Source: Candidatus Doudnabacteria bacterium RIFCSPHIGHO2_02_FULL_43_13b
GTDB lineage: Bacteria; Patescibacteriota; Doudnabacteria; UBA920; O2-02-FULL-48-8
Assembly: GCA_001777655.1 (NCBI GenBank)
Contig: MFER01000016.1
Span: 1-45,930, forward strand
DNA: 45,930 nt
Direction: 5' to 3'
Notes under the pieces: model-generated
What the model saw: the letters and a program-made list of their open reading frames with translations, nothing else
What the model was told of the DNA's origin: nothing
Database searches by the model: none
Shown here: positions 1,648 to 45,768 of the stretch, in pieces
Position numbering within the stretch: the stretch's first letter is position 1
How the letters are laid out: each line of letters starts with the position of its first letter
Translations under genes and position numbers: made by a program

Positions 1648-2110
1648 CTACGAAATACGAAATCACGAAAATACGAACTATGTTTAAACCTAACGTTTTA
1701 AAAAAAGACTTAGTTTACCCCGAACTAAGCTACACAATAGTCGGTATTTTATTTAGGGTTTATAAAGCAATAGGCGCTGGATTTGATGAAAAACATTATC
1801 AGAGAGCTGTGGCAAGAGAATTAGAAAAATCTGGCTTAAATTTTTTAGAACAAGTTAGATTACCCCTAAGTTACTCAGGTCAGAGTATAGGTTCATTTGC
1901 CTTGGATTTTCTAATAGAAGAAAAAATAATTTTAGAGATTAAAAAGGATAAAAATTTTGGCAGTAAAAATTTGGACCAAGTTTACTCCTATCTAAAAGCG
2001 ACAGGATTACAGCTTGGGATTCTTGCAAATTTCACAAAAGACGGTTTGAAGTTTAAAAGAATTGTGAATTTAAAGTCCAGTTCGTAGTTCGATTTTTCGT
2101 ATTTTCGTAG
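1648..2110. repeat. Imperfect ~32-bp inverted repeats (ACGAA units) flanking the GxxExxY gene: 1648-1679 and 2079-2110
   Basis: Left CTACGAAATACGAAATCACGAAAATACGAACT; reverse complement of right CTACGAAAATACGAAAAATCGAACTACGAACT. Confidence 0.9.
1680..2087 (+). CDS. GxxExxY family PD-(D/E)xK-like protein
   Basis: GAGFDEKHY, DFLIEEKIILEIK, QVYSYLK, GILANF. ATG at 1680 preferred over TTG at 1644. Confidence 0.9.
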   Translation: MFKPNVLKKDLVYPELSYTIVGILFRVYKAIGAGFDEKHYQRAVARELEKSGLNFLEQVRLPLSYSGQSIGSFALDFLIEEKIILEIKKDKNFGSKNLDQVYSYLKATGLQLGILANFTKDGLKFKRIVNLKSSS

Positions 2111-2121
2111 AAAGGCAGCTT

Positions 2122-2937
2122 ATGAGAAAGGTTTTAGTGATTCTTGGAGGAATTATAATTATCGCTGCCTTAGTTTTTTTTATTTTCGTTCCGGCATTTC
2201 AGGGAAAGCTGGTGATTGACCCGATTATCCATTTGGGACCGCTTAGTATCCGCTGGTATGGGTTGATTTTAGCTGCCAGTATATTGACGGGTTATTTTAT
2301 TATCCGGAAGAATTCCTGGAAATTTGGAATTTCCGCCAAAGACATTGATGATTTTGCGTTTTGGTTAGTGATTGTCGCTGTGGTGGGAGCCCGGATATAT
2401 TTTGTGCTATTTAATTGGGCGTATTTTTCCCAAAACCTCGCTGAGATCTATAAAATTTGGTACGGTGGCATATCGATTTATGGTTCCCTGATCGCCGGCG
2501 TTATTTTTTCCTATTTTTATACGAGGAAAGCTGCCTATAGTTTTTGGCAGTTAACTGACTTGCTTGCTTTGGGACTGCCCCTTTCGCAGGCGATTGGCAG
2601 ATTGGGCAATTTCGTCAATCAAGAAGCCTATGGAACACACACAAATTTACCTTGGAAGATGTATGTGGCTGCAAAACAAGATTACGTGCATCCCACCTTT
2701 TTGTACGAAGCAGTCGCGAATGTTTTGGTCTTTGTGGTATTGAAAAAAATGATCGGTAAATTCAAACCCGGGGTTTTAGTGTTGACATATTTTATGGCGT
2801 ATTCTGTCATCAGATTTGTTGTGGAAGGGTTGCGCACCGACAGTTTATATATTTCAATTTTTCGGGTGGATCAAATCGTCGCGGTTATAATTTTGCTCAT
2901 CTCCGGCCTACTGCTTTGGATGAGGTCCAAGCATTGA
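2122..2937 (+). CDS. lgt: Prolipoprotein diacylglyceryl transferase
   Basis: IRWYG, GARIYFV, GRLGNFVNQEAYG and HPTFLYE motifs. Confidence 0.95.
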   Translation: MRKVLVILGGIIIIAALVFFIFVPAFQGKLVIDPIIHLGPLSIRWYGLILAASILTGYFIIRKNSWKFGISAKDIDDFAFWLVIVAVVGARIYFVLFNWAYFSQNLAEIYKIWYGGISIYGSLIAGVIFSYFYTRKAAYSFWQLTDLLALGLPLSQAIGRLGNFVNQEAYGTHTNLPWKMYVAAKQDYVHPTFLYEAVANVLVFVVLKKMIGKFKPGVLVLTYFMAYSVIRFVVEGLRTDSLYISIFRVDQIVAVIILLISGLLLWMRSKH

Positions 2938-2974
2938 TTTTTGGGCCAAAAATTGATATCCTAGTTGGGTCATG

Positions 2975-3116
2975 CCCAGTAATACAACTTCGATCGTTTT
3001 TGCATTTAAATGATTTTTTATCTAAATTCTGATCGGTAGATTGTGCTGGTCAATGCATCAAATTTTGACGTCGCAAAAACGTTAAAAAAATCATTAATCG
3101 AAGTTGATATACTGGG
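2975..3116. repeat. Intergenic element with ~20-bp imperfect terminal inverted repeats (MITE-like or structured RNA)
   Basis: CCCAGTAATACAACTTCGAT ... ATCGAAGTTGATATACTGGG, plus two internal complementary pairs. Confidence 0.7.
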
Positions 3117-3824
3117 ATGTTTAATAAGATTTCATCTCTGGCCCTGGCCATTTTGTTGTTTTTGGTTCTTTGGGGGACCCAGAGTCATTTTTATATTTTT
3201 TTGGCCGCAGTTGGCGGGCTGATTTTAGCCACAATTGCAATTAATTATCGGCGATTAAATTTTACTTGGCCGCATCTGATGTTGCCTATCATCTATTTGA
3301 TTGGAGTCGCAGTTGTGTTCGCGGTTGTCGGCAGCGGGACTGTAAGATTAATTTTTTTGATTTTCGCGGCATTGGCATTTTATGTTCTGGAATTTAAATT
3401 AGGAAAAGAAAGTCATTTTTTACAAAATATTTTTTTGTTGTCAACGTTTGGCTGGTTTCTCGGCATATTCGCTCTAGAATTTTATCTTCGATTACCGACG
3501 ATCTTTTTGGCTATCTTAGTTTTTGTTATCACGTATTTGTTCGCGGTGCAAGGATTTGCGGGTTTCACGCTGCCGAGTAAAAAATACTTTTATTTGTTGT
3601 TAGCCTTGGTTTGTGCCGAGGCGGCCTGGGGGATAATGTTGTGGCCGACTTTTTATTTCGTTAATGCGGTTGTATTATTTTGTATTTTCTATCTGATTTG
3701 GCTGTTTGCTTTTTCCGCTTTTTTCGGCAAACTGACAAAGGCAAAAATGTATTGGCAGGTAATTTTGGTGGTCATAGTATTAACCGCGGTGTTATCAACC
3801 GCCGCCTGGAAACCCTTAAGATAA
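3117..3824 (+). CDS. Polytopic membrane protein (CPR DUF5656-like, tentative)
   Basis: About 8 hydrophobic segments; C-terminal half loosely resembles the 10460-11374 protein. Confidence 0.7.
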   Translation: MFNKISSLALAILLFLVLWGTQSHFYIFLAAVGGLILATIAINYRRLNFTWPHLMLPIIYLIGVAVVFAVVGSGTVRLIFLIFAALAFYVLEFKLGKESHFLQNIFLLSTFGWFLGIFALEFYLRLPTIFLAILVFVITYLFAVQGFAGFTLPSKKYFYLLLALVCAEAAWGIMLWPTFYFVNAVVLFCIFYLIWLFAFSAFFGKLTKAKMYWQVILVVIVLTAVLSTAAWKPLR

Positions 3825-3931
3825 TGATCAATATATACCTTGTCATCGGGTAGTAGGGTATAATGGAACAGGTGGCTACAGCGCGCAAGGCGGGATTAGG
3901 AAAAAGTTAAAATTACTAAAGAAAGAAGGTT

Positions 3932-4981
3932 ATGAATCGTAAGCAGGTGATAATCATTATTTTAATCGCTTTTGTTTTTGGTGCTGTGGGCAGCATAGTT
4001 TTTGGCCGTTACATCTTGCCGCCCTTGGCTCAAGTAAAAGGTTTTGGCTGGGTTAGTCAGTTAATCAGCGATGCCCCGATTGTCATCAACCGTCGGGAAG
4101 AAGTTCAATATACCGAAGGGGTTAATCTCATCGATTTGATTAAGCAAACCAACGGAATTACTGCTTCCGTTTTTTCTTTGGATAATAAATTTTTAGGCAA
4201 TGGCATTATCATCACTTCCGATGGATTAATTTTTTCTACGGATGTCATTTTGAGCGGCCAAACACAAGTCAGAATTGTTTTAAACGACGGTCGGAGCTTC
4301 GAAGGGTTGGTCAGGGGCAGGGATTTGAAAAGTGAATTAGTGGCGATAACTATTCAAGCAAGCGGTTTGCCAGTGGCGCAGTTTTTTGAAGGAACGACGT
4401 TGGGCGCAGGACAGCGAGTCGTCGCCTTGGGAAAATCCGTTACAGTTTTTGATCACATGTTTCGAACCGGTTTTGTCACACAAACGCCACAAAATTCTGC
4501 CAGCGCTTCTGTTTTGAAAGACTCAGAGCGCATCAGTGAAAGTCTTATGACTGATTTATCAATTAATTCTGATATGCTGGGAGCCCCCGTGGTTGATCTG
4601 GCCGGCCGGGTAGTCGGCATCATCGCGACAGAGCAGCAGATAATTTTTTCCGAACATCTGCAGACCGCCATGAATTTGTATTTAAGCAGCGGCGGTATTT
4701 TTCGACCAGCGTTTGGCGTAAAGTATTTTTTTCTTAGCTCGAGCCTGGCCGGATTGGAAGGATACCCCCAGGCAGGAGCATTGGTCTCTTCGCTTTCTAC
4801 TGGCAGCAGTGCCCAAAAAGCTGGATTATTAAAGAATGATTATATCCTCGCAATCAACGGGCAGGAATTTGGCAACGATACGTTCGAAGAGGTCTTGAAC
4901 CGGCACACGAGTGGGGAAATTAAATTAACGGTTTTACGAGCAGGGGTTGAGCGGGAATTAATTGTGAACTTAATCAAATAA
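3932..4981 (+). CDS. HtrA/DegP-like trypsin-fold plus PDZ protein, probably catalytically inactive
   Basis: N-terminal TM; GNGIIITSDGLI; PDZ motif SSAQKAGLLKNDYILAING; triad motifs degenerate. Confidence 0.85.
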   Translation: MNRKQVIIIILIAFVFGAVGSIVFGRYILPPLAQVKGFGWVSQLISDAPIVINRREEVQYTEGVNLIDLIKQTNGITASVFSLDNKFLGNGIIITSDGLIFSTDVILSGQTQVRIVLNDGRSFEGLVRGRDLKSELVAITIQASGLPVAQFFEGTTLGAGQRVVALGKSVTVFDHMFRTGFVTQTPQNSASASVLKDSERISESLMTDLSINSDMLGAPVVDLAGRVVGIIATEQQIIFSEHLQTAMNLYLSSGGIFRPAFGVKYFFLSSSLAGLEGYPQAGALVSSLSTGSSAQKAGLLKNDYILAINGQEFGNDTFEEVLNRHTSGEIKLTVLRAGVERELIVNLIK

Positions 4982-4983
4982 TT

Positions 4984-5400
4984 ATGAACTCTGACTGCAT
5001 TTTTTGTAAAATCATCAGCGGTGGGATTCCATCAGATAAAATTTACGAAGACGACGCAGTTTTGGCGTTTATGGATATCCGACCGGTCAGTCGCGGCCAT
5101 ACTTTGGTCGTGCCCAAAACGCATACCGATGATTTTTTATCAACTGATGACCAGACACTTTCTGATTTGATCCCAAAAATAAAAAAAATCGCCCACGTTG
5201 TGATGCAAGCTGTTGGGGCCCAGGGGATGAATATTAGCACCAACCATGGTGAAGCGGCCGGTCAAGTGGTCATGCATCTGCATTTCCATTTAATCCCGCG
5301 TTTTTCTAATGATGAGCTTAAACCCTGGCCACATCAAGAGCTTGATCCAAAAATCCGCGCGGAGATCGCAGAAAGAATAAAAAGCAGGTTAAATGAATAA
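4984..5400 (+). CDS. hit: HIT family nucleotide hydrolase
   Basis: DCIFCKII, GHTLVVPK, HLHFHLIPR. Confidence 0.95.
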   Translation: MNSDCIFCKIISGGIPSDKIYEDDAVLAFMDIRPVSRGHTLVVPKTHTDDFLSTDDQTLSDLIPKIKKIAHVVMQAVGAQGMNISTNHGEAAGQVVMHLHFHLIPRFSNDELKPWPHQELDPKIRAEIAERIKSRLNE

Positions 5401-6277
5401 GACAATTGTTATTGGTAAGAAAAATTTTAGTTTACAAAACCGGCGGGCATATAAGCCTGTTTATGTTTATAAGGGAAGGGATTTATTTTTAAGATTAGGT
5501 CCTGCGGCGATAGTTCAAAAAGAATTAAAGCTCCATCAACGCCTGATTAAGCTTGGTTTTCCCTTCGCTCCAATCGTCTCATCGGGAAAACAGGGGAACC
5601 GATTTTATTATATAGAGGAATCTTTAGGTAATATTCATTTTGGTCAAATTTTTTCCAAAGACATCCAGAATCAAAAGTGGATTTCAAAGCAAAACTTCGA
5701 CGCATTTTTGACTATCACCAAGAAATTTGCTGAAGCACAGTTAAGAACTGTCTTGAGGATAGGATTCCGAAAAAATTTCGCTGTCGGGACTAATTTTGTA
5801 AACATTATAAAGGAACTCCCGACAATGAAGTTACAATTTACAAAAGCTTATAAAATTCTCTCAAAGCGTCTAGAAGGACTCCCTTTTGTTTTAACCCACG
5901 GTGATTTTAGCCCGTTTAATATCTATCGCAGGGGCATAATTGACTTAGAATCGTTTTTTTGGGCACCAGCCGGTTATGATTTAGTATCCAATTTGTGTCA
6001 TAATGAGTTTTTCCCGAAAAATAAGGGCTACGAAATGCAGCGGGTCTATGAGTTTACCAAGGATCAAAAAAATCTCTATCTAGACTTGGTAGATCGCATA
6101 TATTTGAAACACAAATTACCAAAACCCTCGAATTATTATTTGGATTTTTATGTGTGCCGATGTATTTGGAGCGCCGCCCGGATGGGAAAGTGGCCCAAAA
6201 TTCAGCAGTGGCGCTATGAACAGTCGAAGAAGGTTATACGAAATTATTTAAGACTAAATAGTAAAATCAGGTTATAA
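5393..6277 (+). CDS. Aminoglycoside/choline kinase-like (APH) phosphotransferase
   Basis: THGDFSPFNI and IIDLE motifs. Confidence 0.8.
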   Translation: MNKTIVIGKKNFSLQNRRAYKPVYVYKGRDLFLRLGPAAIVQKELKLHQRLIKLGFPFAPIVSSGKQGNRFYYIEESLGNIHFGQIFSKDIQNQKWISKQNFDAFLTITKKFAEAQLRTVLRIGFRKNFAVGTNFVNIIKELPTMKLQFTKAYKILSKRLEGLPFVLTHGDFSPFNIYRRGIIDLESFFWAPAGYDLVSNLCHNEFFPKNKGYEMQRVYEFTKDQKNLYLDLVDRIYLKHKLPKPSNYYLDFYVCRCIWSAARMGKWPKIQQWRYEQSKKVIRNYLRLNSKIRL

Positions 6278-6284
6278 TAGGCAT

Positions 6285-6484
6285 ATGCGCTATTTAATTA
6301 CAGGTGGAGCGGGGTTCACCCAGCACCACCTGATGTTATGTCAGTTTATTTTTTAAACCTATCTTAGATGCGCTATTTAATTACAGGGGGAGCGGGGTTC
6401 ACCCAGCACCACCTGATGTTATGTCAGTTTATTTTTTAAACCTATCTTAGATGCGCTATTTAATTACAGGTGGTGCTGGGTTCA
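6285..6484 (+). repeat. 83-bp-period tandem repeat giving three copies of the first 34 nt of rfbB (6285, 6368, 6451)
   Basis: ATGCGCTATTTAATTACAGG... three times. The first two copies continue CCCAGCACCACCTGATG...TCTTAG and each encodes MRYLITGGAGFTQHHLMLCQFIF*. Confidence 0.95.
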
Positions 6485-7398
6485 TCGGTTCCAATTTTAT
6501 CCATTTTTTGTTTGCCAAAAATCCAGATTGTGAAATTGTCAATCTGGATAAACTGACTTATGCGGGCAATCTGGATAATTTGAAAGATATAGAAAACAAT
6601 CCGCGCTACAAGTTTGTGAAAGGGGATATTGCAGATCCCAACGCCGCAAACCTTTTAGTGGCGGATTGCGACGTGGTCGTCAACTTTGCGGCCGAAACCC
6701 ACGTGGATCGATCAATCATGGGGCCTGCTGAGTTTATCCAAACCAACGTAGTCGGCACTCAAGTATTATTAGACGCCTGCGTCAAAAACCAAAAACGGTT
6801 TCATCATATTTCTACTGATGAAGTCTTTGGGGATTTAAAGGTTGGCGGGAAAGAAAAATTTACTGAAAATACCCCGTATAACCCCTCTAGCCCTTATTCT
6901 GCCAGTAAAGCCGCTTCTGACCATCTGGTTCGCGCCTATGTTCGGACTTATGGTTTGCCGGCAACGATTTCTAACTGTTCGAATAACTATGGGTCGTATC
7001 AATATACTGAGAAATTTATTCCGTTAATGATTACGAATGCGCTCGCGAATAAAAAACTTCCAGTTTACGGTGATGGACTAAATGTCCGCGATTGGATCCA
7101 CGTCGATGATCATAATGCTGCGGTTGATTTGGTGATCCAAAAAGGGAAAATTGGTGAGACATATTTGATTGGCGGTAATAATGAAATGGCCAACATTGAT
7201 GTGGTCAAGATGATTTTGAAAATACTAGGTAAGCCGGAGAGTTTGATTGAGTTTGTAACCGACCGTAAAGGCCATGATCGGCGCTATGCGATCGATTCCA
7301 GTAAAATTGAAAGAGAATTGGGCTGGAAGCGAGAAATCGAGTTCGAAGCCGGCCTACAAAAAACTATCATTTGGTACAAAGATTTTTATAGGTTATAA
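6451..7398 (+). CDS. rfbB: dTDP-glucose 4,6-dehydratase
   Basis: TGGAGFIGSNF, DKLTYAGN, AAETHVDRS, STDEVFG, YSASKA. Confidence 0.97.
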   Translation: MRYLITGGAGFIGSNFIHFLFAKNPDCEIVNLDKLTYAGNLDNLKDIENNPRYKFVKGDIADPNAANLLVADCDVVVNFAAETHVDRSIMGPAEFIQTNVVGTQVLLDACVKNQKRFHHISTDEVFGDLKVGGKEKFTENTPYNPSSPYSASKAASDHLVRAYVRTYGLPATISNCSNNYGSYQYTEKFIPLMITNALANKKLPVYGDGLNVRDWIHVDDHNAAVDLVIQKGKIGETYLIGGNNEMANIDVVKMILKILGKPESLIEFVTDRKGHDRRYAIDSSKIERELGWKREIEFEAGLQKTIIWYKDFYRL

Positions 7399-7838
7399 TA
7401 CTTTAACGTATTATAAGTTAAATAAATGACTAAAATATCCACAAAACCTGTTCCAGAAAATCGAATGGGGCAGATGATTGATCAACTTTGGAGAGCGGTG
7501 GCAAGTCTGGAAACCAAAGACGAAGTTCATGATTTCCTGCATGATATTTTGACGCATACAGAGCTCCAAATGCTGGCCAAACGATTGCAAGTAGTCGTGA
7601 TGCTTGATGAAGGATTTAAATATGAAGAGATTAAAAAAGCGCTAAGCATTAGTGAGGCAACAATTTCGAAAATTCAAAACTGGCGACAGGCTTTTGGGAA
7701 AGGGTATAGTGTTGTGATCGAAAGACTAAAAAACAAAAAGAAAAATTATCGAAACGTAAAGTCAGGTAGGATTTACAGTAGCCGTACGGCAGCTCTAAGA
7801 ATGTGGAAAAGTTAAAATACTTTAACGTATTATAAGTT
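7393..7838. repeat. Identical 23-bp direct repeats (7397-7419, 7816-7838), each overlapping a palindrome, flanking the TrpR-like gene
   Basis: AATACTTTAACGTATTATAAGTT twice; dyad TTATAATAC-TTTAAC-GTATTATAA. Confidence 0.92.
7426..7815 (+). CDS. TrpR-like (YerC/YecD) helix-turn-helix protein
   Basis: FLHDILTHTELQMLAKRL...YEEIKKALSISEATISK. Confidence 0.9.
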   Translation: MTKISTKPVPENRMGQMIDQLWRAVASLETKDEVHDFLHDILTHTELQMLAKRLQVVVMLDEGFKYEEIKKALSISEATISKIQNWRQAFGKGYSVVIERLKNKKKNYRNVKSGRIYSSRTAALRMWKS

Positions 7839-7845
7839 CAGATTT

Positions 7846-8394
7846 ATGAGTCAGATCACTGAATTTAAAATTAAACAAACTGAAATCCCGGGCCTGTTAG
7901 AGATTGATATTAGTTTGATGGAAGACGAGCGCGGGTATTTTCAGGAAAAGTTTCAGAAAGAAAAGTTGGTCGCAGCCGGGTTTCCTGAAAGTTTCACGCC
8001 GGTTCAGCAAAGTGTTTCATACAATAAGGAAGTGGGCGTGACGCGGGGTTTTCACGCCGAGCCTTGGGAAAAATATATCGCGGTAATTACCGGTAAAGCT
8101 TTCGGCGCTTATCTCGACCTGCGACCTGGCCAAAATTTCGGGAAAATTGTGACAATAGAGCTTAATCCGACTAAGGCCGTTTTTCTGCCCCGTGGAGTAG
8201 CCAATGCCTTTCAAACATTGACTCCAGACGTATATTATTCCTATTTGATCAATGCTCACTGGTCTTCTCAAGCCAAATATCAATCCGTGAATTTGAAAGA
8301 TCCGGAGATTCATATTGATTGGCCGATAAATTTGGCAGAAGCAATTATTTCTGAAAAGGATTTAAACAATCCCTTCTTGAAAGATTTCCGATGA
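7846..8394 (+). CDS. rfbC: dTDP-4-dehydrorhamnose 3,5-epimerase
   Basis: DERGYFQE, RGFHAEPW, DLR, PRGVANAF, ISEKD. Confidence 0.95.
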   Translation: MSQITEFKIKQTEIPGLLEIDISLMEDERGYFQEKFQKEKLVAAGFPESFTPVQQSVSYNKEVGVTRGFHAEPWEKYIAVITGKAFGAYLDLRPGQNFGKIVTIELNPTKAVFLPRGVANAFQTLTPDVYYSYLINAHWSSQAKYQSVNLKDPEIHIDWPINLAEAIISEKDLNNPFLKDFR

Positions 8395-9218
8395 AAATTT
8401 TAATTTTAGGAGCCAAAGGCAGTCTAGGGCAGACGTTTGTGGATCTTTATTCCGACCATGAAGTTTCGGCATGGGATCGGCAGGAGTTGGATATTACGGA
8501 TGAAAATCTTGCTCATGACCATATTACTGAGCTGGCTCCGAAGCTGATTATAAACTGCGCGGGTTATAATAATGTCGATCAAGCCGAAGATGAACGCGAG
8601 GCGGCGGATTCGATTAACGGTTACGCTGTCGGGTTTATCGCCAGAGCGGCGGATGAAATTGGCGCAATTTTAGTTTCTTATTCCACCGGCCAGGTATTCG
8701 ACGGCGGTAATGCTTCCGGCTATAATGAGGATGATGAGACCCGGCCAGTTAATGCTTATGGCAAATCCAAGCTTCTAGGAGAAATGGAGCTTCAGGAAAA
8801 AGCAGAGAAATATTATCTCATTCGGACTTGTTGGTTATATGGCCAGCCAGCTGCCGGAAAGAAAAGCTTCACGGATATCATGCTCGATTTGGCGGCTGGG
8901 CATCAGCCAATCAATGCCGTCACAGACGAGTTTGGCAAACCGACCTTTGTCGTCGATTTAGCTCAAGCCACTCGCGCATTGATTGAGGAGCGGAAACCAT
9001 TCGGCATATATCATTTGACGAATTCCGGGGTCGCGAGCCGCTATGATTGGGCGAAAGAAATTTTTGCGATCAAAAAAATGAAAGTGAATTTACAAGCCAT
9101 GGACGCCAGTTTTTTTGAACGAAAAGCCAAGCGGCCGAAATACGAAGTATTAAATAACACGAAATTTATCGAGCTGAGGCCTTGGACCGAAGCTTTGAAA
9201 GAATATTTAAATACATGA
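8391..9218 (+). CDS. rfbD: dTDP-4-dehydrorhamnose reductase
   Basis: ILGAKGSLG, VFDG, PVNAYGKSKLLGE, PTFVVDLA. Confidence 0.93.
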   Translation: MKILILGAKGSLGQTFVDLYSDHEVSAWDRQELDITDENLAHDHITELAPKLIINCAGYNNVDQAEDEREAADSINGYAVGFIARAADEIGAILVSYSTGQVFDGGNASGYNEDDETRPVNAYGKSKLLGEMELQEKAEKYYLIRTCWLYGQPAAGKKSFTDIMLDLAAGHQPINAVTDEFGKPTFVVDLAQATRALIEERKPFGIYHLTNSGVASRYDWAKEIFAIKKMKVNLQAMDASFFERKAKRPKYEVLNNTKFIELRPWTEALKEYLNT

Positions 9219-9693
9219 TGCTAATCTGCGAATGATATGCCAATCTACGAATTGCTAATATGGAACCCTCGAATTTAGTTTATCCCAAAGAATCATATAG
9301 AGTTACCGGGGTATTATATGCAACTCATAACGAACTAGGTCGATTTTGTAACGAAAAGCAATACTGTGATCGAGTTGAGCAGATTTTTAAAGAGCTAGGT
9401 ATTAAATACGAACGAGAAAAGATTTTACCACCAAGTTTTGAAGCAGAATTACCAGGACGGAATAAAATTGATTTTATTGTGGAAGGTAAAATTATATTAG
9501 AATGCAAGGCGAAAAGAGTATTAACCCGAGAAGATTACTATCAGGCTAAACGTTATTTAAGATCGTACAATAAGAAACTTGCATTATTAGTTAACTTCCG
9601 AGATAAATATATTAGACCGAAAAGAATTTTGAATTCATTAGTGAAAGAAGATTAGCAATTCGCACAATTGGCATTAATTAGCAAATTCGCATC
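9217..9693. repeat. Imperfect ~43-bp inverted repeats (TGCNAAT units) flanking the second GxxExxY gene: 9217-9259 and 9651-9693
   Basis: Left GATGCTAATCTGCGAATGATATGCCAATCTACGAATTGCTAAT; reverse complement of right GATGCGAATTTGCTAATTAATGCCAATTGTGCGAATTGCTAAT. Confidence 0.9.
9260..9655 (+). CDS. Second GxxExxY family protein
   Basis: HNELGRFCNEKQY, DFIVEGKIILECK, QAKRYL, LLVNF. Confidence 0.88.
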   Translation: MEPSNLVYPKESYRVTGVLYATHNELGRFCNEKQYCDRVEQIFKELGIKYEREKILPPSFEAELPGRNKIDFIVEGKIILECKAKRVLTREDYYQAKRYLRSYNKKLALLVNFRDKYIRPKRILNSLVKED

Positions 9694-9699
9694 ATACTT

Positions 9700-10458
9700 A
9701 TGAAAGGCATAATTTTAGCCGGCGGGCTAGGAACCAGACTATATCCACTCACTCATGCGACGAATAAACATTTGTTGCCGGTGTTCGACAAGCCTATGAT
9801 TTATTATCCGATCAGAACCTTGGTTCGGGCTGGGATTCGGGACATTATGGTTGTTGTTTCTGGGCCTCATTCCGGCGACTTTATCCGGGTCCTGAAAAAC
9901 GGCAAGGAATTTGGGATCAAACATTTGGAATACGCTTATCAGGACGCGCCAGACGGCGGGATTGCTGACGCGCTGGTAAAAGCCGAAAGCTTTGCTGATA
10001 ATCAACCCGTCACCGTGATCTTGGGCGATAATTGCACGGATGCGAATATCGGCAAGGAAGTCCGAAGTTTTAAGGGTGGTGCCTTGGTTTTTTTGAAGAA
10101 AGTTGATGATCCTAATCGATTCGGGATTGCAGAGTTTGACAAAAAAGACTCGAGCAAGGTTATCGGCATCGTGGAAAAACCCAAAAAACCGAAAAGTAAT
10201 TTTGCTCAGACCGGGGTTTATATTTATGATAATAAAGTATTTAATTATATAAAAAAAATTAAACCCTCGGCTCGAGGCCAGTTAGAAATCACTGATTTAA
10301 ATAATATCTATATCAATGCGAAGAAATTTAATTGGGCCGAACTGAAAGGATTTTGGTCTGATGCGGGAACTTTCGAGAGCCTTTATAAAACCAGTGTTTA
10401 TTGGGCGAGAAAAATTTTGGGTAAACGAAACGAACGGAATTTAACCAGATTTGACTAG
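9700..10458 (+). CDS. rfbA: Glucose-1-phosphate thymidylyltransferase (short RfbA/SpsI type)
   Basis: MKGIILAGGLGTRLYPLT, KHLLPV, LGDN, EKP, RGQLEITD, WSDAGT. Confidence 0.9.
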   Translation: MKGIILAGGLGTRLYPLTHATNKHLLPVFDKPMIYYPIRTLVRAGIRDIMVVVSGPHSGDFIRVLKNGKEFGIKHLEYAYQDAPDGGIADALVKAESFADNQPVTVILGDNCTDANIGKEVRSFKGGALVFLKKVDDPNRFGIAEFDKKDSSKVIGIVEKPKKPKSNFAQTGVYIYDNKVFNYIKKIKPSARGQLEITDLNNIYINAKKFNWAELKGFWSDAGTFESLYKTSVYWARKILGKRNERNLTRFD

Positions 10459-10459
10459 C

Positions 10460-11374
10460 ATGCGCAATTTATTTAACGAGCGGACCCATAAATATATCTC
10501 AATCTTAATCGTGACCTTCGGAGCTTTTTTCGGCTTTGAGGCGGTCAGTTATGCTATCGGGATTTATCAGCTGAATTCCAGTCTTTATCTTTCTTTGTAT
10601 ATCTACGCCTTTCATATTTTTTGGTTGACTTTTCTGTTTGATTTGCATTTTAAGAAGCGCGGAGTGCTAGCTATCGCCCGTTTAAACCACCAGGGTCTGA
10701 AAATGTTTTGGGAAGCGTTTAAAGACCGGATCGCCCACGTCCGGAAATGGGAATACTTCCGGCATTATCAAAACTACCTTGTCCTCCCCGGCGTACTTTA
10801 TTGGGGAGTCGTGGTTTTGTTGTTTTTAAATCCATTTAAATACGGATTGAAACAGATGATAATTCTTTCTGGTACATTTGCTATGAGTGTGGCTTATTGG
10901 TATATGAAAGAGCATATCAGCCGGCAATTAGAACACCAGGCCTCTTGGATTAAAGTTTTGGCCATGGTTAAGTTGTTCGCCGCATTTTTGATTTACTCCG
11001 CCCTTTTAGGCGTGACTCTGCGATATGGATTTGAAGCCTGGTTTTTGGTCGCCGCCACATTGACTATTACTTTTCTGTTGGTTTATCAAGCGTTATTCCA
11101 ACATCGCCTGTTAACCTTTGATACTTTTTTATGGGTTGTTATAATCGCCTTTGTGGTCGGGCTGGTGTCGATTTGGGTTTACTCGCACTGGAATACCCAG
11201 TACTTTACGGGAGGATTAGTCATGCTGGCGGTTTACAATACTCTCTGGGGATTGCTTCATCATTATCTTGAACATACTTTAAGTAGGAAAATTGTTTTCG
11301 AATATTTACTAATGATGATTTTTATCATTTCTTTTCTTCTTGCTTCACACAACTTCAATCAAAAAGTAATTTAA
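10460..11374 (+). CDS. Polytopic membrane protein of unknown function
   Basis: About 9 hydrophobic segments; ATG at 10460 directly follows the rfbA stop. Confidence 0.75.
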   Translation: MRNLFNERTHKYISILIVTFGAFFGFEAVSYAIGIYQLNSSLYLSLYIYAFHIFWLTFLFDLHFKKRGVLAIARLNHQGLKMFWEAFKDRIAHVRKWEYFRHYQNYLVLPGVLYWGVVVLLFLNPFKYGLKQMIILSGTFAMSVAYWYMKEHISRQLEHQASWIKVLAMVKLFAAFLIYSALLGVTLRYGFEAWFLVAATLTITFLLVYQALFQHRLLTFDTFLWVVIIAFVVGLVSIWVYSHWNTQYFTGGLVMLAVYNTLWGLLHHYLEHTLSRKIVFEYLLMMIFIISFLLASHNFNQKVI

Positions 11375-13974: not shown

Positions 13975-14013
13975 AAAAAAGAGGGCGGGAATTCTTGCGA
14001 ATTCCCGCCCTTT
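13975..14013 (-). terminator. Intrinsic terminator of the GC-rich collagen-like gene
   Basis: AGGGCGGGAATTC-TTGC-GAATTCCCGCCCT with a U-run on the minus strand. Confidence 0.85.
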
Positions 14014-14036
14014 AGTTTGGGGCGCCGCTTAAAAGC

Positions 14037-15314
14037 TTAGCGGCGACCGAAACGGTAGTTGAAGCCCATCGTGACAGCGGACAGATTCGTTCGCTCGTGC
14101 GCGGTGAACGTGTTGGGACGGGTCGAACTGATTCCCATCCAATCCAACGCCATCGTGCCATGCAGCCCTCCGACGAGCCGCACGTTGGCTTCCGCGCGGA
14201 AACCGTAGGAGCGCGCGTCTTCCTCAGGTCGGGTGACCTTTGGAAAGTCGATGCCTTGGTAGGTCTGGTGCGTCCACGCCTTACGGCGCAGAAACCCGAA
14301 TTCACCAATGGCACTGACCTCGACGCGGCCGTTGCCAGTCTGACCTCTCGCCTCCACACCGACGATTGGCCCTGCGTAGGACCGCTCAGCGTCAGTGTTG
14401 GCTCCCTGGGCGACATATTCTTCGCACAGACACAGTCGAGACCAGCCGCCGTAGCCGCCGATGGTGAGGTCTCCCAGTGAGCGTTGATAGCCGAGCTTCA
14501 CTTTCAGCAGTTCATCGCGGCTATCGTCACTGTCACGATCCTTGTCGACCCAGTTGCCAGTGATGTCCTGGAACTCCATGCCTAAGGTTGAGCCCAGGGC
14601 ATTGGACGAGACGGATCCGAACACGCCGCTGCCTGCTCGCTCGACTCGAAGGATCGGCACCACAGCTCGGAAACTGTGCTTTTGGGGCACATCTCCGGAG
14701 TTGGGTACCGGTTCCGTATAGTCGGAGCGAACGTTTCCCATCGTGACGCCAACGCCGAACGAAATCGCGAACCCACGGCCGACTTTCTTTGTCGTCCGTG
14801 TGACGGGTGCGGGAGGCGGAGGCGGGAGAGCGACGATTGCATCAGTACCCTTTGGTCCCTGCGGACCCACGGGGCCTCGTGGACCTTGAGGTCCTTGCGG
14901 ACCAGTCGGCCCTTGCGGTCCTGGCGGACCAGGGAGGGGTTTCAGTGTTGGGAATGCAACGATCTGAAACGAATCGTTGTTGCATGCCGTCATTCGTAGC
15001 GGCAATCCGGTGCCACGGTCGTAGACGAACTCTCGCCCCTTTTCGACCTTCACGAAGCCGCGCTTGCCTTCACGGTCCGGGAGGACCATATCGACGCAGC
15101 TGTCCGAGGGGAGACCACGGACGACTTCGTTGGCGGCGAGAACGCGAGTTTTGATGACACTGGGGTAGTAGAACGGCGCGTCGACGGACGCCAGACATTC
15201 CGTGCTGGTCTTCCAATGGTCGACCAGTGTCGGTGTCTGTGCCGTCGGGCTGCTGGCGCCAAGTCCAACGAGGAGTACGAACACTCCTACGAACACTCCG
15301 ATGATATTGCGCAT
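14037..15314 (-). CDS. GC-rich secreted protein: signal peptide, Cys-containing domain, collagen-like repeats, beta-rich C-terminal domain resembling an outer-membrane barrel
   Basis: AAAGGAGG SD; hydrophobic N-terminus; about 10 Gly-X-Y triplets (14841-14930); alternating beta strands ending MGFNYRFGRR. Confidence 0.8.
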   Translation of the reverse strand: MRNIIGVFVGVFVLLVGLGASSPTAQTPTLVDHWKTSTECLASVDAPFYYPSVIKTRVLAANEVVRGLPSDSCVDMVLPDREGKRGFVKVEKGREFVYDRGTGLPLRMTACNNDSFQIVAFPTLKPLPGPPGPQGPTGPQGPQGPRGPVGPQGPKGTDAIVALPPPPPAPVTRTTKKVGRGFAISFGVGVTMGNVRSDYTEPVPNSGDVPQKHSFRAVVPILRVERAGSGVFGSVSSNALGSTLGMEFQDITGNWVDKDRDSDDSRDELLKVKLGYQRSLGDLTIGGYGGWSRLCLCEEYVAQGANTDAERSYAGPIVGVEARGQTGNGRVEVSAIGEFGFLRRKAWTHQTYQGIDFPKVTRPEEDARSYGFRAEANVRLVGGLHGTMALDWMGISSTRPNTFTAHERTNLSAVTMGFNYRFGRR

Positions 15315-15424
15315 TGTATTTACCCCTCCTTTGGGGCGCCAGTCTAGCTGGCTGATCGATCGAAAGAACGAAAGTGGTTGTGTCCTGCCCCTGATTGCCC
15401 CGAAAGGGACAGGGTAGAACTGTA

Positions 15425-15511
15425 TATTATTCTCCTTTTCAACGATTTTGTCAATAGCTCGTTAACAGTGGCGCTACCACTATTGACAAAACCACTCATC
15501 TTTGCTAAACT
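15425..15511. promoter_or_regulatory. Divergent sigma70-type promoters
   Basis: Plus strand TTGACA(15483)-17 nt-TAAACT with TG extension; minus strand TTGACA (TGTCAA at about 15449) followed by AATAATAT. Confidence 0.65.
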
Positions 15512-15619
15512 ACGGTGTTCATGTAATTTTTGTATTAATGGCTCGTTTTATATTCAAACGAAAGCGGCAGCATAATTTGGGTAAATTAATAATTAAGATT
15601 TAGGAAGTAGAATAGGTTT

Positions 15620-29451: not shown

Positions 29452-29730
29452 ATCCCGTTAGAGACAACTATATGCACTATGTATATATAATTCAAAGTCA
29501 ACGAGATAAACATTTATATACCGGATCAACGAATGATTTACGGAAACGCTTCAGTGAGCATAATAATCGAAGAGTTTTTTCTACCAAAGGTCGGGGTCCT
29601 TTTACTTTGATCTATTACGAAGCTAGTTTAAATAAACAAGATGCTCGTGCTAGGGAAAAGTATTTGAAAACAGGAATGGGCAAGCGTTATATTAAAAACA
29701 GACTGAAGCGTTTCCTGTCTCTAACGGGAT
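29452..29730. repeat. Perfect 15-bp inverted repeats bracketing the GIY-YIG gene
   Basis: ATCCCGTTAGAGACA (29452-29466) and TGTCTCTAACGGGAT (29716-29730). Confidence 0.93.
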
Positions 29731-29732
29731 GA
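29472..29732 (+). CDS. Stand-alone GIY-YIG nuclease
   Basis: HYVYIIQS..LYTGSTNDLRKRFSEHN..YYE..ARAREKYLK. Confidence 0.93.
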   Translation: MHYVYIIQSQRDKHLYTGSTNDLRKRFSEHNNRRVFSTKGRGPFTLIYYEASLNKQDARAREKYLKTGMGKRYIKNRLKRFLSLTG

Positions 29733-30841: not shown

Positions 30842-30850
30842 ATTAAGTCT

Positions 30851-30992: not shown

Positions 30993-31007
30993 AAGAAGAG
31001 ATAGTCT

Positions 31008-40728: not shown

Positions 40729-40840
40729 ACGGTTTACGGCAGCGCCACGCGTATCGGTAACCGTTAGGCGTTAAACGGCCGTAAGAACGCAGCCGTAAGA
40801 GACGATACGCGCAGCGCAAACGAATAACGATTAACGATAA
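40729..40840 (+). repeat. Structured intergenic element, copy 1
   Basis: CGGTTTACGGCAGCGCCACGCGTATCG...CGATACGCGCAGCGCAAACGAATAACGATTAACG. Confidence 0.85.
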
Positions 40841-41391: not shown

Positions 41392-41472
41392 TGCGGTTTT
41401 ACGGCAGCGCCATGCGTATCGGCAAACGTCAAACGATACGCGCCGCGCCGACGAATAACAATTAACGAATAA
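41392..41472 (+). repeat. Structured intergenic element, copy 2 (shorter loop)
   Basis: CGGTTTTACGGCAGCGCCATGCGTATCG...CGATACGCGCCGCGCCGACGAATAACAATTAACG. Confidence 0.85.
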
Positions 41473-41474
41473 GT

Positions 41475-43523: not shown

Positions 43524-43868
43524 ATGAGACATCGAAAGAAGCAGAAAATTGGCAAAGGTAGAGATCACAAAAGGAAACTTTTGCGGGCTTTGGCTGCTTC
43601 AGCGATTGTTTACGAAAAAATCCAAACCACGGCCGCCCGCGCTAAGGTTACCCGTTCTTTGGTTGAAAAATTGATCACCAAAGGCAAAAACGACAGTCTG
43701 CATTCTAAGCGTCAGATTTTCTCAGCACTGCCAATCAATGCCGCACGTAAGGTCATCGAAGTGTTAGGACCACGTTATAAAACCCGCCCCGGAGGATATA
43801 CTCGGATTGTGCGAATTGGCAAATATAAAGATGGTATGCCAAAAGTAATGCTGGAGCTAGTCGAGTAG
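43524..43868 (+). CDS. rplQ: 50S ribosomal protein L17
   Basis: MRHRK, EKIQTTAARAK, RPGGYTRI. Confidence 0.97.
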   Translation: MRHRKKQKIGKGRDHKRKLLRALAASAIVYEKIQTTAARAKVTRSLVEKLITKGKNDSLHSKRQIFSALPINAARKVIEVLGPRYKTRPGGYTRIVRIGKYKDGMPKVMLELVE

Positions 43869-43931
43869 GATATAGGGGATAGGTTATAGAAAAATCTATA
43901 ACCTAAAACCTACAACCTATAACCTAAATCC
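43866..43931. repeat. Inverted arrays of 7-mer TATAACC-like units
   Basis: TAGGATATAGGGGATAGGTTATAG-AAAAAT-CTATAACCTAAAACCTACAACCTATAACCTA. Confidence 0.85.
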
Positions 43932-44351
43932 ATGAAAACATTTATTCCAAAAACGAAAGATATCAAAAGAGCCTGGTACGAAGCCGACGCGTCGAAGTTT
44001 ACTTTGGGTCGGTTGGCTTCGAAAGCGGCTTCAATTCTTCGTGGTAAGCACAAAGTAACATTTACCCCTCACATGGATGTGGGAGATTTCGTGATTGTAA
44101 AAAACGCAGAATTGATCAGATTTACCGGACGCAAATTGGCGCAGAAGAAGTATTACCGATTTTCTGGTTACCCGGGCGGATTATATACCAAGAAACTTTC
44201 TGATCGAATGAAAACCGAACCGGACAAAGTTATCCGCGACGCGGTTTACAACATGCTGGATAAAAATCGGTTACGCAAACATATTTTAAGACGACTGAAA
44301 GTGGTGGTCGGTGACAAACACCAGTTTCAGGTGGATAAGGAACTTTTATAA
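43932..44351 (+). CDS. rplM: 50S ribosomal protein L13
   Basis: LGRLAS..LRGKHK..PHMDVGD, SGYPGGL. Confidence 0.98.
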   Translation: MKTFIPKTKDIKRAWYEADASKFTLGRLASKAASILRGKHKVTFTPHMDVGDFVIVKNAELIRFTGRKLAQKKYYRFSGYPGGLYTKKLSDRMKTEPDKVIRDAVYNMLDKNRLRKHILRRLKVVVGDKHQFQVDKELL

Positions 44352-44845
44352 TGGAAGCGATACCTAAAAAAATAGCGAAGAAAACCGTGCACAAAAAAGC
44401 AACAATCAAAGCGGCCAAAACCACCAAGCCTGCCGTTGAAACTCCGAAGGTTGCTCACGCTAAGCATTTTTACGCGGTCGGTCGCAGAAAAACCGCAGTG
44501 GCTCAAGCAACTCTCAGCTCTGGAGACGGGACCATCACCGTGAATCAATTGCCGCTGGAAGGTTATTTTATGACGGCTAGCTTGCAGCACATCGTCAAGC
44601 AACCACTGGCGACCTTAGGTCAAGAAAAGAAACTGAATGTTAGAGCGAAAGTTCATGGTGGCGGCATCCATGCTCAAGCCGAAGGTTTACGGCATGCGAT
44701 CGCCCGCGCCATCATTGCCCTGGATCCTGAATCTCGAAGAACTTTGAAAAAACTAGGCTTTTTGACTCGCGACCCGCGGGTGAAAGAACGAAAGAAACCA
44801 GGGTTGAAACGAGCCCGCCGCGCCCCACAGTTTTCCAAGCGATAA
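44351..44845 (+). CDS. rpsI: 30S ribosomal protein S9 with Lys-rich N-terminal extension
   Basis: GRRKTAVA, GGG, TRDPRVKERKKPGL, QFSKR. Confidence 0.98.
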   Translation: MEAIPKKIAKKTVHKKATIKAAKTTKPAVETPKVAHAKHFYAVGRRKTAVAQATLSSGDGTITVNQLPLEGYFMTASLQHIVKQPLATLGQEKKLNVRAKVHGGGIHAQAEGLRHAIARAIIALDPESRRTLKKLGFLTRDPRVKERKKPGLKRARRAPQFSKR

Positions 44846-44908
44846 AGAGCTGACATTATAAAAATACTTATACCAATCAAGTCCTTGGTTCGATATAAAG
44901 CATAAGGT

Positions 44909-44941
44909 AAAGCTCTGTTCATTTGGGGGACAGAGCTTTTT
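44909..44941 (+). terminator. Intrinsic terminator after rpsI
   Basis: AAAGCTCTGTTC-loop-GGACAGAGCTTTTT. Confidence 0.75.
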
Positions 44942-45033
44942 GCTTATCATAATACCTCGATTTATATCCAGTTTTCATCTGTCATTTGCTGCCAATATTT
45001 TTGCCAAAATAAATTTAATAGTCTCAGTCCTAG

Positions 45034-45768
45034 TGTCCAACATGCTGTCCGATCGGACGAAGAATTGGACAAGGTGTTTTAACCATTAGGGTCTAATATT
45101 CGTTAATACGATAACCTGTTAATATAATATCCATTGTCCAACCATATAACCGTACGGGCGGCAAATTGGACATTTAAGTTATTTGTATTTATAGTATAAG
45201 TTATAGTATAAATTTATGAATAAAGAAGAATTGAAAGAAGCATTTATTGAAACCATCAAAGATATGGGCGGGTTGATTGATGATATAATCTTCCGACCAT
45301 ATAGCTTGCGTATTAGCCGAATGTATTATCCCAGGTCCACTTATTATCACCGACTGAATAAGTTCGAAATGCAAGGCTTGGTCAAAAGAAAGCAACATCG
45401 AAAATACGGCAACCCTTTTGTCGTCACACAAAAAGGGAGAACGTTGCTGCATAAGCCGAGCATTCAAAAAAGAAGATCTGATGGGTTCTCAAGCATTATT
45501 ATTTTCGACATTCCAGAAGATAAGCATCGGGAGAGAAATATCTTTCGGCGCTATTTGAAACGAAATGGTTACACTCTCATCCAAAAAAGCGTCCTGATCA
45601 GCCCATTGGAAATTTCACGTGAATTAGAAGAGTTGATGGAGGAACTTAAAATCAGACCTTACGTAACCAAGATTTCAGGTAAAATCAATTTTTCCTAAAA
45701 AGTCGCATATATGGCATAAAACAGTGTCCAAGCCCAACCATATGCCCGTACGGACGCGGGATTGGACA
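45034..45768. repeat. Three 38-bp dyad sites TGTCCAA-N8-CCGWWCGG-N8-TTGGACA (45034-45071, 45135-45172, 45731-45768)
   Basis: Read directly. The third copy has AGCCCAA as its left arm, with an extra TGTCCAA at 45725. Confidence 0.9.
45216..45698 (+). CDS. PaaX-like protein: winged HTH plus Cas2/VapD-like domain
   Basis: LNKFEMQGLV..VTQKG (wHTH wing); IIIFDIPEDK..RNIFRRYL..GYTLIQKSV. Confidence 0.85.
   Translation: MNKEELKEAFIETIKDMGGLIDDIIFRPYSLRISRMYYPRSTYYHRLNKFEMQGLVKRKQHRKYGNPFVVTQKGRTLLHKPSIQKRRSDGFSSIIIFDIPEDKHRERNIFRRYLKRNGYTLIQKSVLISPLEISRELEELMEELKIRPYVTKISGKINFS

Follow-up and report, generated by a model that had tools for sequence, protein, structure and literature searches.

Gene-plus-repeat modules of a Doudnabacteria contig: probable selfish nuclease-gene cassettes beside regulators with putative flanking operators

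Why should five unrelated small genes on one bacterial contig each lie tightly between repeats of their own? The contig, C16 (MFER01000016.1), belongs to Candidatus Doudnabacteria bacterium RIFCSPHIGHO2_02_FULL_43_13b, and its entire 45,930 bases, the stretch analysed, are here called the window. The genome, G000, spans 776,513 bases in 17 contigs and is 99.7% complete. The genes encode two GxxExxY proteins, a TrpR/YerC-like protein, a GIY-YIG protein and a PaaX/Cas2-like protein, and a sequence-only reading had taken all five for one candidate class of selfish or regulatory modules. We find the pattern to be real, genome-wide and recurrent across the order, yet it is not one class. With moderate confidence we read it as a mixture of two kinds of module: selfish nuclease-gene cassettes at gene junctions, and regulators flanked by their own operators.

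The five genes stand out in a genome-wide scan of flanking repeats. We aligned the upstream with the downstream flank of 877 crudely called genes of the 776-kb genome, in direct and inverted orientation. Best scores had a median of 18, a 95th percentile of 28 and a 99th percentile of 52. The TrpR-like gene ranked 11, the second GxxExxY gene 12, the PaaX-like gene 21, the GIY-YIG gene 37 and the first GxxExxY gene 58, the last being under-scored because the crude caller placed its start at TTG 1644, within its arm. The claim that each gene is bracketed by its own repeat is therefore sound for all five. Every one of 16 looked-up members of these families and of a four-helix-bundle family ranked 58 or better, and the top of the list consists of paralogues: four longer TrpR-like, seven PaaX-like, two GxxExxY and two four-helix-bundle genes (one confirmed as PF05635). 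Such ranks exclude chance as the source of the repeats. Modules of this build hold two GxxExxY, five four-helix-bundle, about 13 GIY-YIG, five TrpR-like and seven PaaX-like hits in the genome.

No conventional transposase accompanies these genes. We scanned 48 open reading frames (ORFs) of the window against Pfam or NCBIfam and assigned both GxxExxY genes to PF13366/TIGR04256, the TrpR-like gene to TIGR02531, the GIY-YIG gene to PF01541 and the PaaX-like gene to PF20803. As the sequence-only reading had noted, none of the 48 carries a transposase or integrase domain; 13 matched no family. Across the genome, Y1 (PF01797), rve (PF00665) and DDE_Tnp_1 (PF01609) transposases gave no matches, and two tyrosine recombinases (PF00589) are encoded. 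Four of the five genes lie co-oriented between other genes, again as described earlier; the exception is the PaaX-like gene, which sits past an operon end at the contig end.

Alignment of orthologous loci supports three lineage-specific precise insertions, namely the two GxxExxY cassettes and the GIY-YIG element. We compared each junction with those of relatives from the same family or order (G004, G006, G007, G008, G011, G012, G016 and others). The elements concerned are listed here, with a gene-less mini-element that also lies on the window.

1648..2110, + strand: GxxExxY cassette 1 (GxxExxY-1), with ORF 1680-2087 encoding a 135-residue PD-(D/E)XK protein
1648-1679: left arm of GxxExxY-1, CTACGAA followed by TACGAAA-type words of 7-8 nucleotides (nt)
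2080-2110: right arm of GxxExxY-1, inverted, terminating in TTTCGTAG
9215..9695, + strand: GxxExxY cassette 2 (GxxExxY-2), with ORF 9260-9655 encoding 131 residues
9215-9259 and 9651-9695: arms of GxxExxY-2, 45 nt, inverted, 73% complementary, built of TGCGAAT, TGCCAAT and TGCTAAT words
29452..29730, + strand: GIY-YIG element of family A, with ORF 29472-29732 encoding 86 residues; ends ATCCCGTTAGAGACA and TGTCTCTAACGGGAT
2975..3116, + strand: gene-less mini-element of family B, ends CCCAGTAATACAACTT and AAGTTGATATACTGGG, with ATG on either side

Each insertion fits its junction closely. GxxExxY-1 follows the stop codon of ORF 1069-1647 and precedes lgt, whose ribosome-binding site and start (2122) come next. 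It is missing there from all 17 relatives; their gaps are mostly 1-60 nt, and three hold other hairpin elements. Its termini also border homologues in other genera. The insertion point of GxxExxY-2 is the ATGA overlap of rfbD and rfbA, which in G000 reads ...ATGA, then arms and ORF, then ...ATGAAAGG. The cassette is absent from all 15 relatives with this junction, eight of which keep the ATGA overlap (...ATGAAAGG...). The same junction holds small unrelated ORFs in G004 and G016, and in G007 a 117-nt gene-less element bearing the ends of the window's GIY-YIG element. A gene-less 118-nt spacer between rpsM and rpsK in G012 matches both arms of GxxExxY-2.

The GIY-YIG element has a perfect 15-nt inverted repeat (29452-29466 and 29716-29730), the right copy of which codes the C-terminus of the protein. 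It is inserted in the ATGAAA stop/start overlap of flippase and glycosyltransferase genes, where G000 reads ATGA, then the element (ATCCCG...CGGGAT), then GAAAATAGG. All 17 relatives lack it, and 13 of them keep the ATGA overlap (...ATGAAAATAGG...). An empty ATGAAA would have become ATGA-element-GAAA, an apparent duplication of 2-5 bp whose exact placement is ambiguous.

Gene-less copies of the same ends are dispersed through the genome. The family A 11-mer end ATCCCGTTAGA occurs 46 times in G000 with at most one mismatch, including at least seven gene-less inverted pairs of 45-95 nt; seven of eight pairs, the window copy counted, lie in an ATGA...GAA context. The family B element at 2975-3116 is inserted exactly on the ATG of gene 3117-3824 and is missing from 17 of 17 relatives, whose site reads ...GGTCATGTTT.... 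In G000, family B ends (CCCAGTAATACAACTT) form five gene-less pairs, and they also surround a GIY-YIG gene (C13 6058-6372) and a decayed GIY-YIG gene (C6 64663-64869), with one pair each. Many other metagenome contigs match the window in these ends alone, and the joints at 2972/2975 and 3116/3119 come from other copies of them. A third GIY-YIG paralogue (C6 77856-78035) has ends of its own, with 19 sites and eight short pairs. Gene-less copies of both GIY-YIG and GxxExxY-2 ends support the suggestion that such units leave non-autonomous hairpins.

The association of GIY-YIG genes with inverted ends extends across the order. Homologues occur in 91 of 121 sampled genomes. Inverted ends scoring at least 24 flank 23 of 29 loci, or 22 of 28 when the window's locus is left out; among 27 controls displaced by 600 nt there are none. 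Within G000 itself, six of 13 GIY-YIG hits reach that score, and the others are fragments or lack clear ends. Those homologues that are closest (72-83% identity, in G008, G007, G011 and G017, all of other genera) share the window's ends, and an ATGA...ATGA context surrounds three of the four; homologues at greater distance have other end families.

GxxExxY genes and four-helix-bundle genes show a shared arm design. TIGR04256 matches occur in 66 of the 121 genomes and TIGR02436 matches in 86, with up to 14 copies per genome of about 1 Mb. Of 30 order-wide GxxExxY loci, ten lie in LepA or RecG ORFs, one lies in another long ORF and two are too short, leaving 17 stand-alone genes to score. Inverted-repeat flank scores exceed the 95th percentile of controls in 12 of these 17 (77 control genes) and in 23 of 27 four-helix-bundle genes (68 controls; two short loci and one with a long ORF stood outside the scoring); direct-repeat scores are enriched for neither family. 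Words of 7-8 nt make up the arms, arrayed in one orientation upstream and as the complement downstream, and many GxxExxY cassettes have CTACNAA...TTNGTAG termini. PF05635 (four-helix-bundle "S23p") genes of the same build lie on contig C12 of G000. Co-occurrence of family and repeat, one of the checks proposed by the sequence-only reading, is seen for both of these families across the order, with a minority of loci lacking clear inverted repeats.

Arms and ORF travel together. A wider scan, with one genome per species and a narrower alignment biased to the GxxExxY-1 subfamily, gave 80 loci from many Patescibacteria classes, four Bacteroidota/Bacteroidia metagenome-assembled genomes (MAGs) and one Planctomycetota MAG; loci close to the window's come from named Doudnabacteria MAGs. 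Of the 78 usable loci, 61 have an inverted-repeat score of at least 28. On a quick protein tree the word class needs 15 changes; 1000 label shuffles needed 27.3 +/- 1.5, and none of them came as low. Word class therefore tracks the protein tree, as it would if arms and ORF move as one; such co-travel alone does not amount to recognition of the arms by the protein.

Some cassettes persist in frame within core proteins. Five loci carry a GxxExxY domain in LepA, between ITIKLQPVRM and LNLIDTPGHVDF, and five carry one in RecG, between DEQHRFGV.QR and PHLLS.TATPIPRTL. These copies are bordered by translated inverted word arrays (...ACGCAGAC... and ...GTCCGCGT...). LepA and RecG of G000 are empty alleles, precisely missing about 140 and 157 residues, respectively. 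GxxExxY domains also occur within open frames of 354-531 residues other than LepA and RecG (G059:C7, G071:C12, G116:C7 and others), and the cassette may be in frame in further host proteins.

Both GxxExxY cassettes are predicted to fold on their arms. In minimum free energy and centroid RNA structures alike, the arms pair as a closing stem; GxxExxY-1 has a z of -4.56, with 0 of 100 shuffles as stable, and GxxExxY-2 a z of -1.33, with 9 of 100. The genome encodes RNase III (rnc, 244 bits against a cut-off of 166). On these models, processing out of the operon transcript, or juxtaposition of the upstream stop with the downstream start, would be feasible.

The GxxExxY protein has the features of a nuclease. 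Residues E37, Y40, D76, E86 and K88 are invariant among 12 aligned proteins. An AlphaFold model (mean predicted local confidence, pLDDT, 89) resembles PD-(D/E)XK nucleases with TM-scores of 0.43-0.56; the nearest folds are Cas4 SSO0001 (E 4.6e-5), lambda-type exonucleases and the similar-sized archaeal Hjc Holliday-junction resolvases (E 4.9e-4). A sequence search of the PDB gave no match. Given this likeness, it is conceivable that the protein might cut structure-specifically at a cruciform formed by the arms.

These features suggest how the nuclease-gene cassettes might work. Each is one small nuclease-fold ORF between terminal inverted repeats, and S23p four-helix-bundle genes elsewhere in the genome share the layout; GxxExxY and S23p arms are word arrays, and GIY-YIG ends are short unique inverted repeats. 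Entry would occur at operon stop/start junctions (ATGA, ATG), after which cassettes would leave or spawn gene-less hairpin copies and could persist in frame in core proteins. The nuclease may recognise the ends, or a cruciform or hairpin of the ends, and so promote spread. In RNA, the arm stem could buy host tolerance: RNase III might process the transcript, or the stem might place the upstream stop beside the downstream start.

The closest known counterparts are the intervening sequences (IVSs) of 23S rRNA. According to PMC4990558, the IVS of Coxiella burnetii is a selfish element whose inverted repeats at the termini make up a 28-bp stem, with tandem GACAGAT heptamers just upstream of an S23p four-helix-bundle ORF and excision by RNase III. 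The same paper cites as an older idea that the IVS ORF served mobility. IVSs of Coxiella and Leptospira resemble our cassettes in the terminal stem around one small ORF and the tandem heptamers upstream, and the PF05635 genes of G000 share this build. They differ in site, as the cassettes lie at protein-gene junctions (in relatives, inside genes) rather than in helix 25 or 45, and in protein, as the window ORFs are GxxExxY PF13366 PD-(D/E)XK proteins rather than S23p PF05635.

Other mobile elements match less well. Bacterial miniature inverted-repeat transposable elements (MITEs) include the Correia elements of Neisseria and the palindromic elements of Rickettsia, and REPIN-RAYT pairs form a related case. 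Like the cassettes, these are short inverted-repeat elements dispersed at gene junctions, some of them read in frame, and the RAYT is a single-copy gene between the same repeats. The nuclease cassettes share terminal inverted repeats and dispersed gene-less copies with MITE-type transposons, and no known transposase class was found with them: their partners are 86-residue GIY-YIG and ~130-residue PD-(D/E)XK proteins in place of an HUH/Y1 or DDE transposase, and their target is ATG or ATGA(A) at gene starts. We rejected a REP/RAYT system proper, as PF01797 has no match in G000. The free-standing homing endonuclease genes that phages carry (GIY-YIG Seg, HNH Mob) are likewise small genes, GIY-YIG among them, between conserved co-oriented genes and present or absent among relatives. 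They carry a DNA-binding domain, whereas the window's GIY-YIG protein is the catalytic domain alone, and they are not known to have terminal inverted repeats or gene-less copies.

Such modules seem to have gone undescribed. A literature search, with subscription journals outside its coverage, found no description of them. To judge from their titles, papers on GIY-YIG with miniature inverted-repeat elements all concern eukaryotes or giant viruses. PMC4692102 deals with heptamer repeats of Xanthomonas and Nostoc.

The other kind of module looks like a regulator between copies of its own binding site. Two modules of the window belong here.

7392..7838, + strand: TrpR/YerC-like module, with ORF 7426-7815 between 28-nt direct repeats (7392-7419 and 7811-7838, 96% alike)
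45034..45768, + strand: mini-PaaX module (winged-helix plus Cas2-like), with ORF 45216-45698 encoding 160 residues
45034-45071, 45135-45172 and 45725-45768: palindromes of the PaaX-like module, TGTCCAA...CCG(A/T)(T/A)CGG...TTGGACA

The TrpR-like module has a layout that would suit an autoregulated gene. Its protein contains a TrpR-like domain (PF01371, 63.7 bits against a cut-off of 27; TIGR02531, 67.4 bits against 42.2). In the upstream repeat a TATAAT box overlaps the palindrome AATAC-N6-GTATT, and the second copy lies just 5' of rfbC (7846). The putative operator AATACTTTAACGTATTATAA is identical in G000 and G011 on both sides of the gene, and G006 has its own variant on both sides. All four longer TrpR-like paralogues in G000 have direct palindrome copies before the start and right after the stop, with the core AATAC-N6-GTATT; in three of the four cases the upstream copy overlaps a TATAAT box. 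In the order, direct-repeat scores exceed the control 95th percentile for 17 of 20 long TrpR-like genes and for 11 of 29 short YerC-type genes.

The PaaX-like module repeats this design with a different protein. Its flanking direct repeats (45135-45172 and 45725-45768) are 79% alike over 43 nt, and a third related palindrome lies at 45034-45071. The protein matches PaaX_M/Cas2-like PF20803 at 52 bits and no other PaaX domain; full-length PaaX (TIGR02277) scores 17.6 bits, below the cut-off of 264.55, and Cas2 (TIGR01573) 28.0 bits, above its cut-off of 24.5. A structure model best matches E. coli PaaX (PDB 8a39; 120 columns, E 1.6e-3, a weak match), then Cas2 proteins; a PDB sequence search gave no match. 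We rejected a CRISPR link, as Cas1 (PF01867) has no match in G000 and the repeats flank one gene rather than spacers. Each of the seven PaaX-like paralogues in G000 lies between its own palindrome pair, and direct-repeat scores exceed the control 95th percentile in 22 of 25 homologues of the order. Pairs centre on CGATCG, CGGCCG or CGTACG; at three loci from two genera, the upstream centre is of the CGATCG or CGACCG type and the downstream centre is CGTACG. No PaaX-like homologue follows rpsI in the loci of 18 relatives.

Three further observations touch these regulators. At about 780-1500 of locus L348 in the relative G018, the slot of a G000 PaaX-like module is filled by two genes, which by eye we take to be a ribbon-helix-helix antitoxin and a RelE-like toxin, bordered by a ~55-nt direct duplication of the upstream gene's 3' end. 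Near its start (~160-200), contig C15 contains the reverse complement of the window's terminal palindrome 45725-45768; C16 and C15 may be neighbours that the assembly split at that palindrome. On C6 (22950-23720), a helix-turn-helix gene, presumably ArsR-like by eye, and the small gene after it are interspersed with three copies of GGTCTAATTCGCGCGAATAGGCGAAT (palindrome TTCGCGCGAA), which would make a third regulator family of operator-gene-operator layout.

Known repressors suggest what the palindromes do. PMC9413887 describes HisR (YerC of B. subtilis) as a TrpR-family repressor with a 20-bp palindrome as its binding site; autoregulation is frequent, and about half of hisR genes carry such a site. 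The TrpR-like module resembles TrpR and HisR in its Trp_repressor helix-turn-helix domain and a palindrome of about 20-28 bp upstream of its own gene. It differs in having a second copy right after the stop, no amino-acid operon context, and four to five paralogues in a 0.78-Mb genome (up to eight matches in a relative), each with its own site. The PaaX-like protein shares the PaaX_M/Cas2-like domain with PaaX, the repressor of phenylacetate catabolism and its best fold match; unlike PaaX it is about half as long, lacks the C-terminal domain and has flanking palindromes of its own. Unlike Cas2, it has no Cas1 in its genome.

The palindromes of both modules are most likely the operators of the proteins they enclose. 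Resident helix-turn-helix regulators would each lie between two direct copies of their own palindromic operator; the upstream copy, overlapping a -10-like box, would provide autoregulation. The downstream copy would probably serve looping or insulation rather than control of the next gene. We rejected it as the operator of the next gene because the downstream neighbour is convergent in 12 of 22 PaaX-like and eight of 14 TrpR-like cases, as judged from crude gene calls, and a second site so placed has no obvious promoter to control. Looping, a transcriptional roadblock, insulation, or hairpins at the 5' and 3' ends of the RNA are possible roles. More broadly, each of the five proteins may recognise its own flanks, as the sequence-only reading inferred.

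Several observations weigh against this two-part account. Clear inverted repeats are wanting in six of 29 GIY-YIG, five of 17 GxxExxY and four of 27 four-helix-bundle genes. Flank-score p-values (Mann-Whitney 3e-8 for GxxExxY; 1e-13 for four-helix-bundle genes) are overstated, since related genomes were counted as independent. GxxExxY-1-type word arms exist as a single copy in G000 with no second, and no target duplication is definable at either GxxExxY junction. GxxExxY cassettes at one orthologous site in several genera (L105, L109, L153, L155 and L160) indicate that many are old and vertically kept. An 86-residue GIY-YIG domain with no DNA-binding domain is unlikely as a sole transposase. 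Contigs from four DNA runs show no joint skipping a cassette over 1000-10900, but such contigs drop rare variants and so do not bear on excision; they run across the left end of GxxExxY-1, across the TrpR-like module and across all of GxxExxY-2, and a foreign copy of the GxxExxY-2 left arm (9214-9248) is among their loose ends. On the regulator side, the convergent neighbours just described leave the second site with no obvious promoter, and the presence of the TrpR-like gene at the rfbB|rfbC junction in only three of 16 genomes is also compatible with cassette gain and loss.

A bolder version of the cassette idea is tempting, and we hold it tentatively. A terminal stem with subterminal 7-8-nt words, or with short unique inverted repeats, might define a minimal mobile element whose sole protein is a nuclease of at most ~135 residues (GxxExxY PD-(D/E)XK or GIY-YIG). 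This would be the same element type that gave rise to the ORF-bearing rRNA intervening sequences. It would target stop/start junctions so that operon expression survives, could live in frame in LepA and RecG, and would seed the word hairpins found in spacers of small genomes; the regulators would be a parallel, perhaps domesticated, cassette design.

The single-class view, in which all five genes including the regulators are self-recognising mobile modules that excise and insert with their repeats, now seems improbable. In its favour, the same gene-plus-own-repeats layout recurs in at least five unrelated families and dominates the top flank scores. At rfbB|rfbC the TrpR-like gene occurs in G000, G011 and G006 alone, with both repeat copies in each; the junction is tight in seven other relatives, and G012 and G008 have a solo palindrome with the gene absent. 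PaaX-like and TrpR-like paralogues lie in variable regions whose neighbours are missing from four to five of the five closest relatives (for the downstream neighbours of three paralogues, matches occur in 1, 0 and 1 of the five), and the G018 slot, the one good orthologous case, with its toxin-antitoxin-like pair, so judged by eye, carries the ~55-nt duplication. Against it, the TrpR-like proteins of G000 and G011 share 61% identity, much as their neighbouring genes do (52-70%), and their palindromes are conserved across genera; conservation at such divergence points towards functional sites, and the two together fit operators of resident regulators better than ends of mobile elements. Ordinary operator binding accounts for helix-turn-helix proteins with palindromes. 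No insertion-linked gene-less dispersal was seen: solo CCGATCGG-type palindromes in G000 lie 3' of genes, mostly between convergent ones. Other than at rfbB|rfbC with its patchy presence, we found no repeat-bounded clean empty site for the regulator modules. The claim of mobility is supported for the three nuclease-type genes, which are missing from 15-17 relatives, have gene-less copies and show cognate ends around homologues. It is not supported for the TrpR-like gene, shared with two other genera, and for the PaaX-like gene; their repeats are direct palindrome copies kept across genera, and the five are not one class.

A second rival puts the arms first. Here the hairpin arms would be the mobile or self-generating entity, moved by host enzymes (the two tyrosine recombinases, or replication and repair at hairpins), with the ORFs as captured passengers. 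Gene-less word hairpins of many word types do fill junctions and differ between genera at one junction; one arm design serves two unrelated families, GxxExxY and four-helix bundle; and two PF00589 recombinases are encoded, against no match to any of the three transposase families searched. We nonetheless consider this explanation unlikely, because arm word type is co-inherited with protein subfamily, each GIY-YIG end family tracks a protein subfamily, and intact catalytic residues suggest selection on the protein. Least credible is that the repeats serve the host purely as RNA devices (processing sites, terminators or coupling hairpins) around ordinary resident genes without mobility: stems are predicted, RNase III is encoded and some cassettes occupy one site across genera, but precise absence from 15-17 relatives with intact ATGA junctions contradicts it for the three nuclease-type cassettes, gene-less copies are dispersed, and the in-frame LepA and RecG copies are wanting in other genomes.

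Gene-less hairpins elsewhere in the window fall into different families. All four that had been reported, at 2975, 40729, 41392 and 43866, exist; besides the family B copy at 2975 they are as follows.

40729..40840 (about), + strand: GC-rich hairpin element between infA and rpmJ
41392..41470 (about), + strand: the GC-rich hairpin element again, as a shorter copy between rpsM and rpsK
43866..43919, + strand: gene-less word hairpin of TATAGG-type words and their complement with a 4-nt loop, between rplQ and rplM

Two of the four, the family B copy and the word hairpin, belong to the selfish inverted-repeat cassettes, which are of an IVS-like or MITE-like kind. The likeness to gene repeats once suggested for all four does not extend to 40729 and 41392, whose GC-rich family is unlike the flanks of all five genes; an element similar to 40729-40840 lies at the same infA|rpmJ junction in G008. 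The hairpin at 43866-43919 occurs in none of 17 relatives, 12 of which have a gap of at most 16 nt and three of which hold other word hairpins there. Genus by genus, the ribosomal junctions of relatives contain different word hairpins, family A mini-elements or nothing.

Other inserts share parts of this architecture. A 166-nt GC-rich multi-hairpin element (30842-31007; ...CGAAGCAATCT...AGATTGCTTCG...) lies between the glycosyltransferase gene and the next gene, and relatives have resembling elements at other junctions. The 12-mer CGAAGCAATCTC has 137 genome sites with at most two mismatches and also borders a GIY-YIG fragment on contig C9. In the spacer past the glycosyltransferase gene in G006 (L050), a 422-nt insert holds a small ORF within GC-rich inverted repeats. 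By eye we take this ORF to resemble DUF559/Vsr-type endonucleases; it may be a further nuclease family with the same layout. On C13 of G000 (117500-118620), a 310-residue gene, presumably FemAB-like by eye, lies between inverted TTACTGC-type word arrays, with another hairpin of the same words after it.

The rest of the window includes housekeeping genes. Among the ORF matches are the four rhamnose genes rfbB, rfbC, rfbD and rfbA, along with lgt, glycosyltransferases, a flippase, an ABC transporter, proteases and AlaRS, and a ribosomal protein cluster runs infA-rpsM-rpsK-rpsD-rpoA-rplQ-rplM-rpsI. A GC-rich stretch at about 14000-16000 (0.546 versus ~0.43) includes ORF 14037-15314 (- strand, 425 residues), which has no Pfam match. 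At 6285-6450, two tandem 83-nt copies, 99% alike, each start with the first 34 nt of rfbB and continue into a GGTGG...CCACC hairpin. The 5' end of rfbB (ATG at 6451) is thus in triplicate, and foreign-contig depth is elevated over 6285-6450.

These modules give obscure genes a testable role. In a 2012 PD-(D/E)XK census, GxxExxY (PDDEXK_3) is listed with unknown function (PMC3424549), and where rRNA intervening sequences come from and what S23p does have been open questions since the 1990s (PMC4990558). GxxExxY and S23p now pair a nuclease or four-helix-bundle gene with defined DNA ends and empty targets. For annotation, about 30 genes of a 0.78-Mb genome become assignable to such modules, and the mini-PaaX genes warn that "Cas2" labels in candidate-phyla-radiation bacteria can mislead. 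The TrpR-like and mini-PaaX genes are ready candidate protein-operator pairs for these bacteria, in which regulation is almost unknown. If the small nucleases drive movement, no autonomous DNA elements smaller than these cassettes would be known in bacteria, and their enzymatic type would be new.

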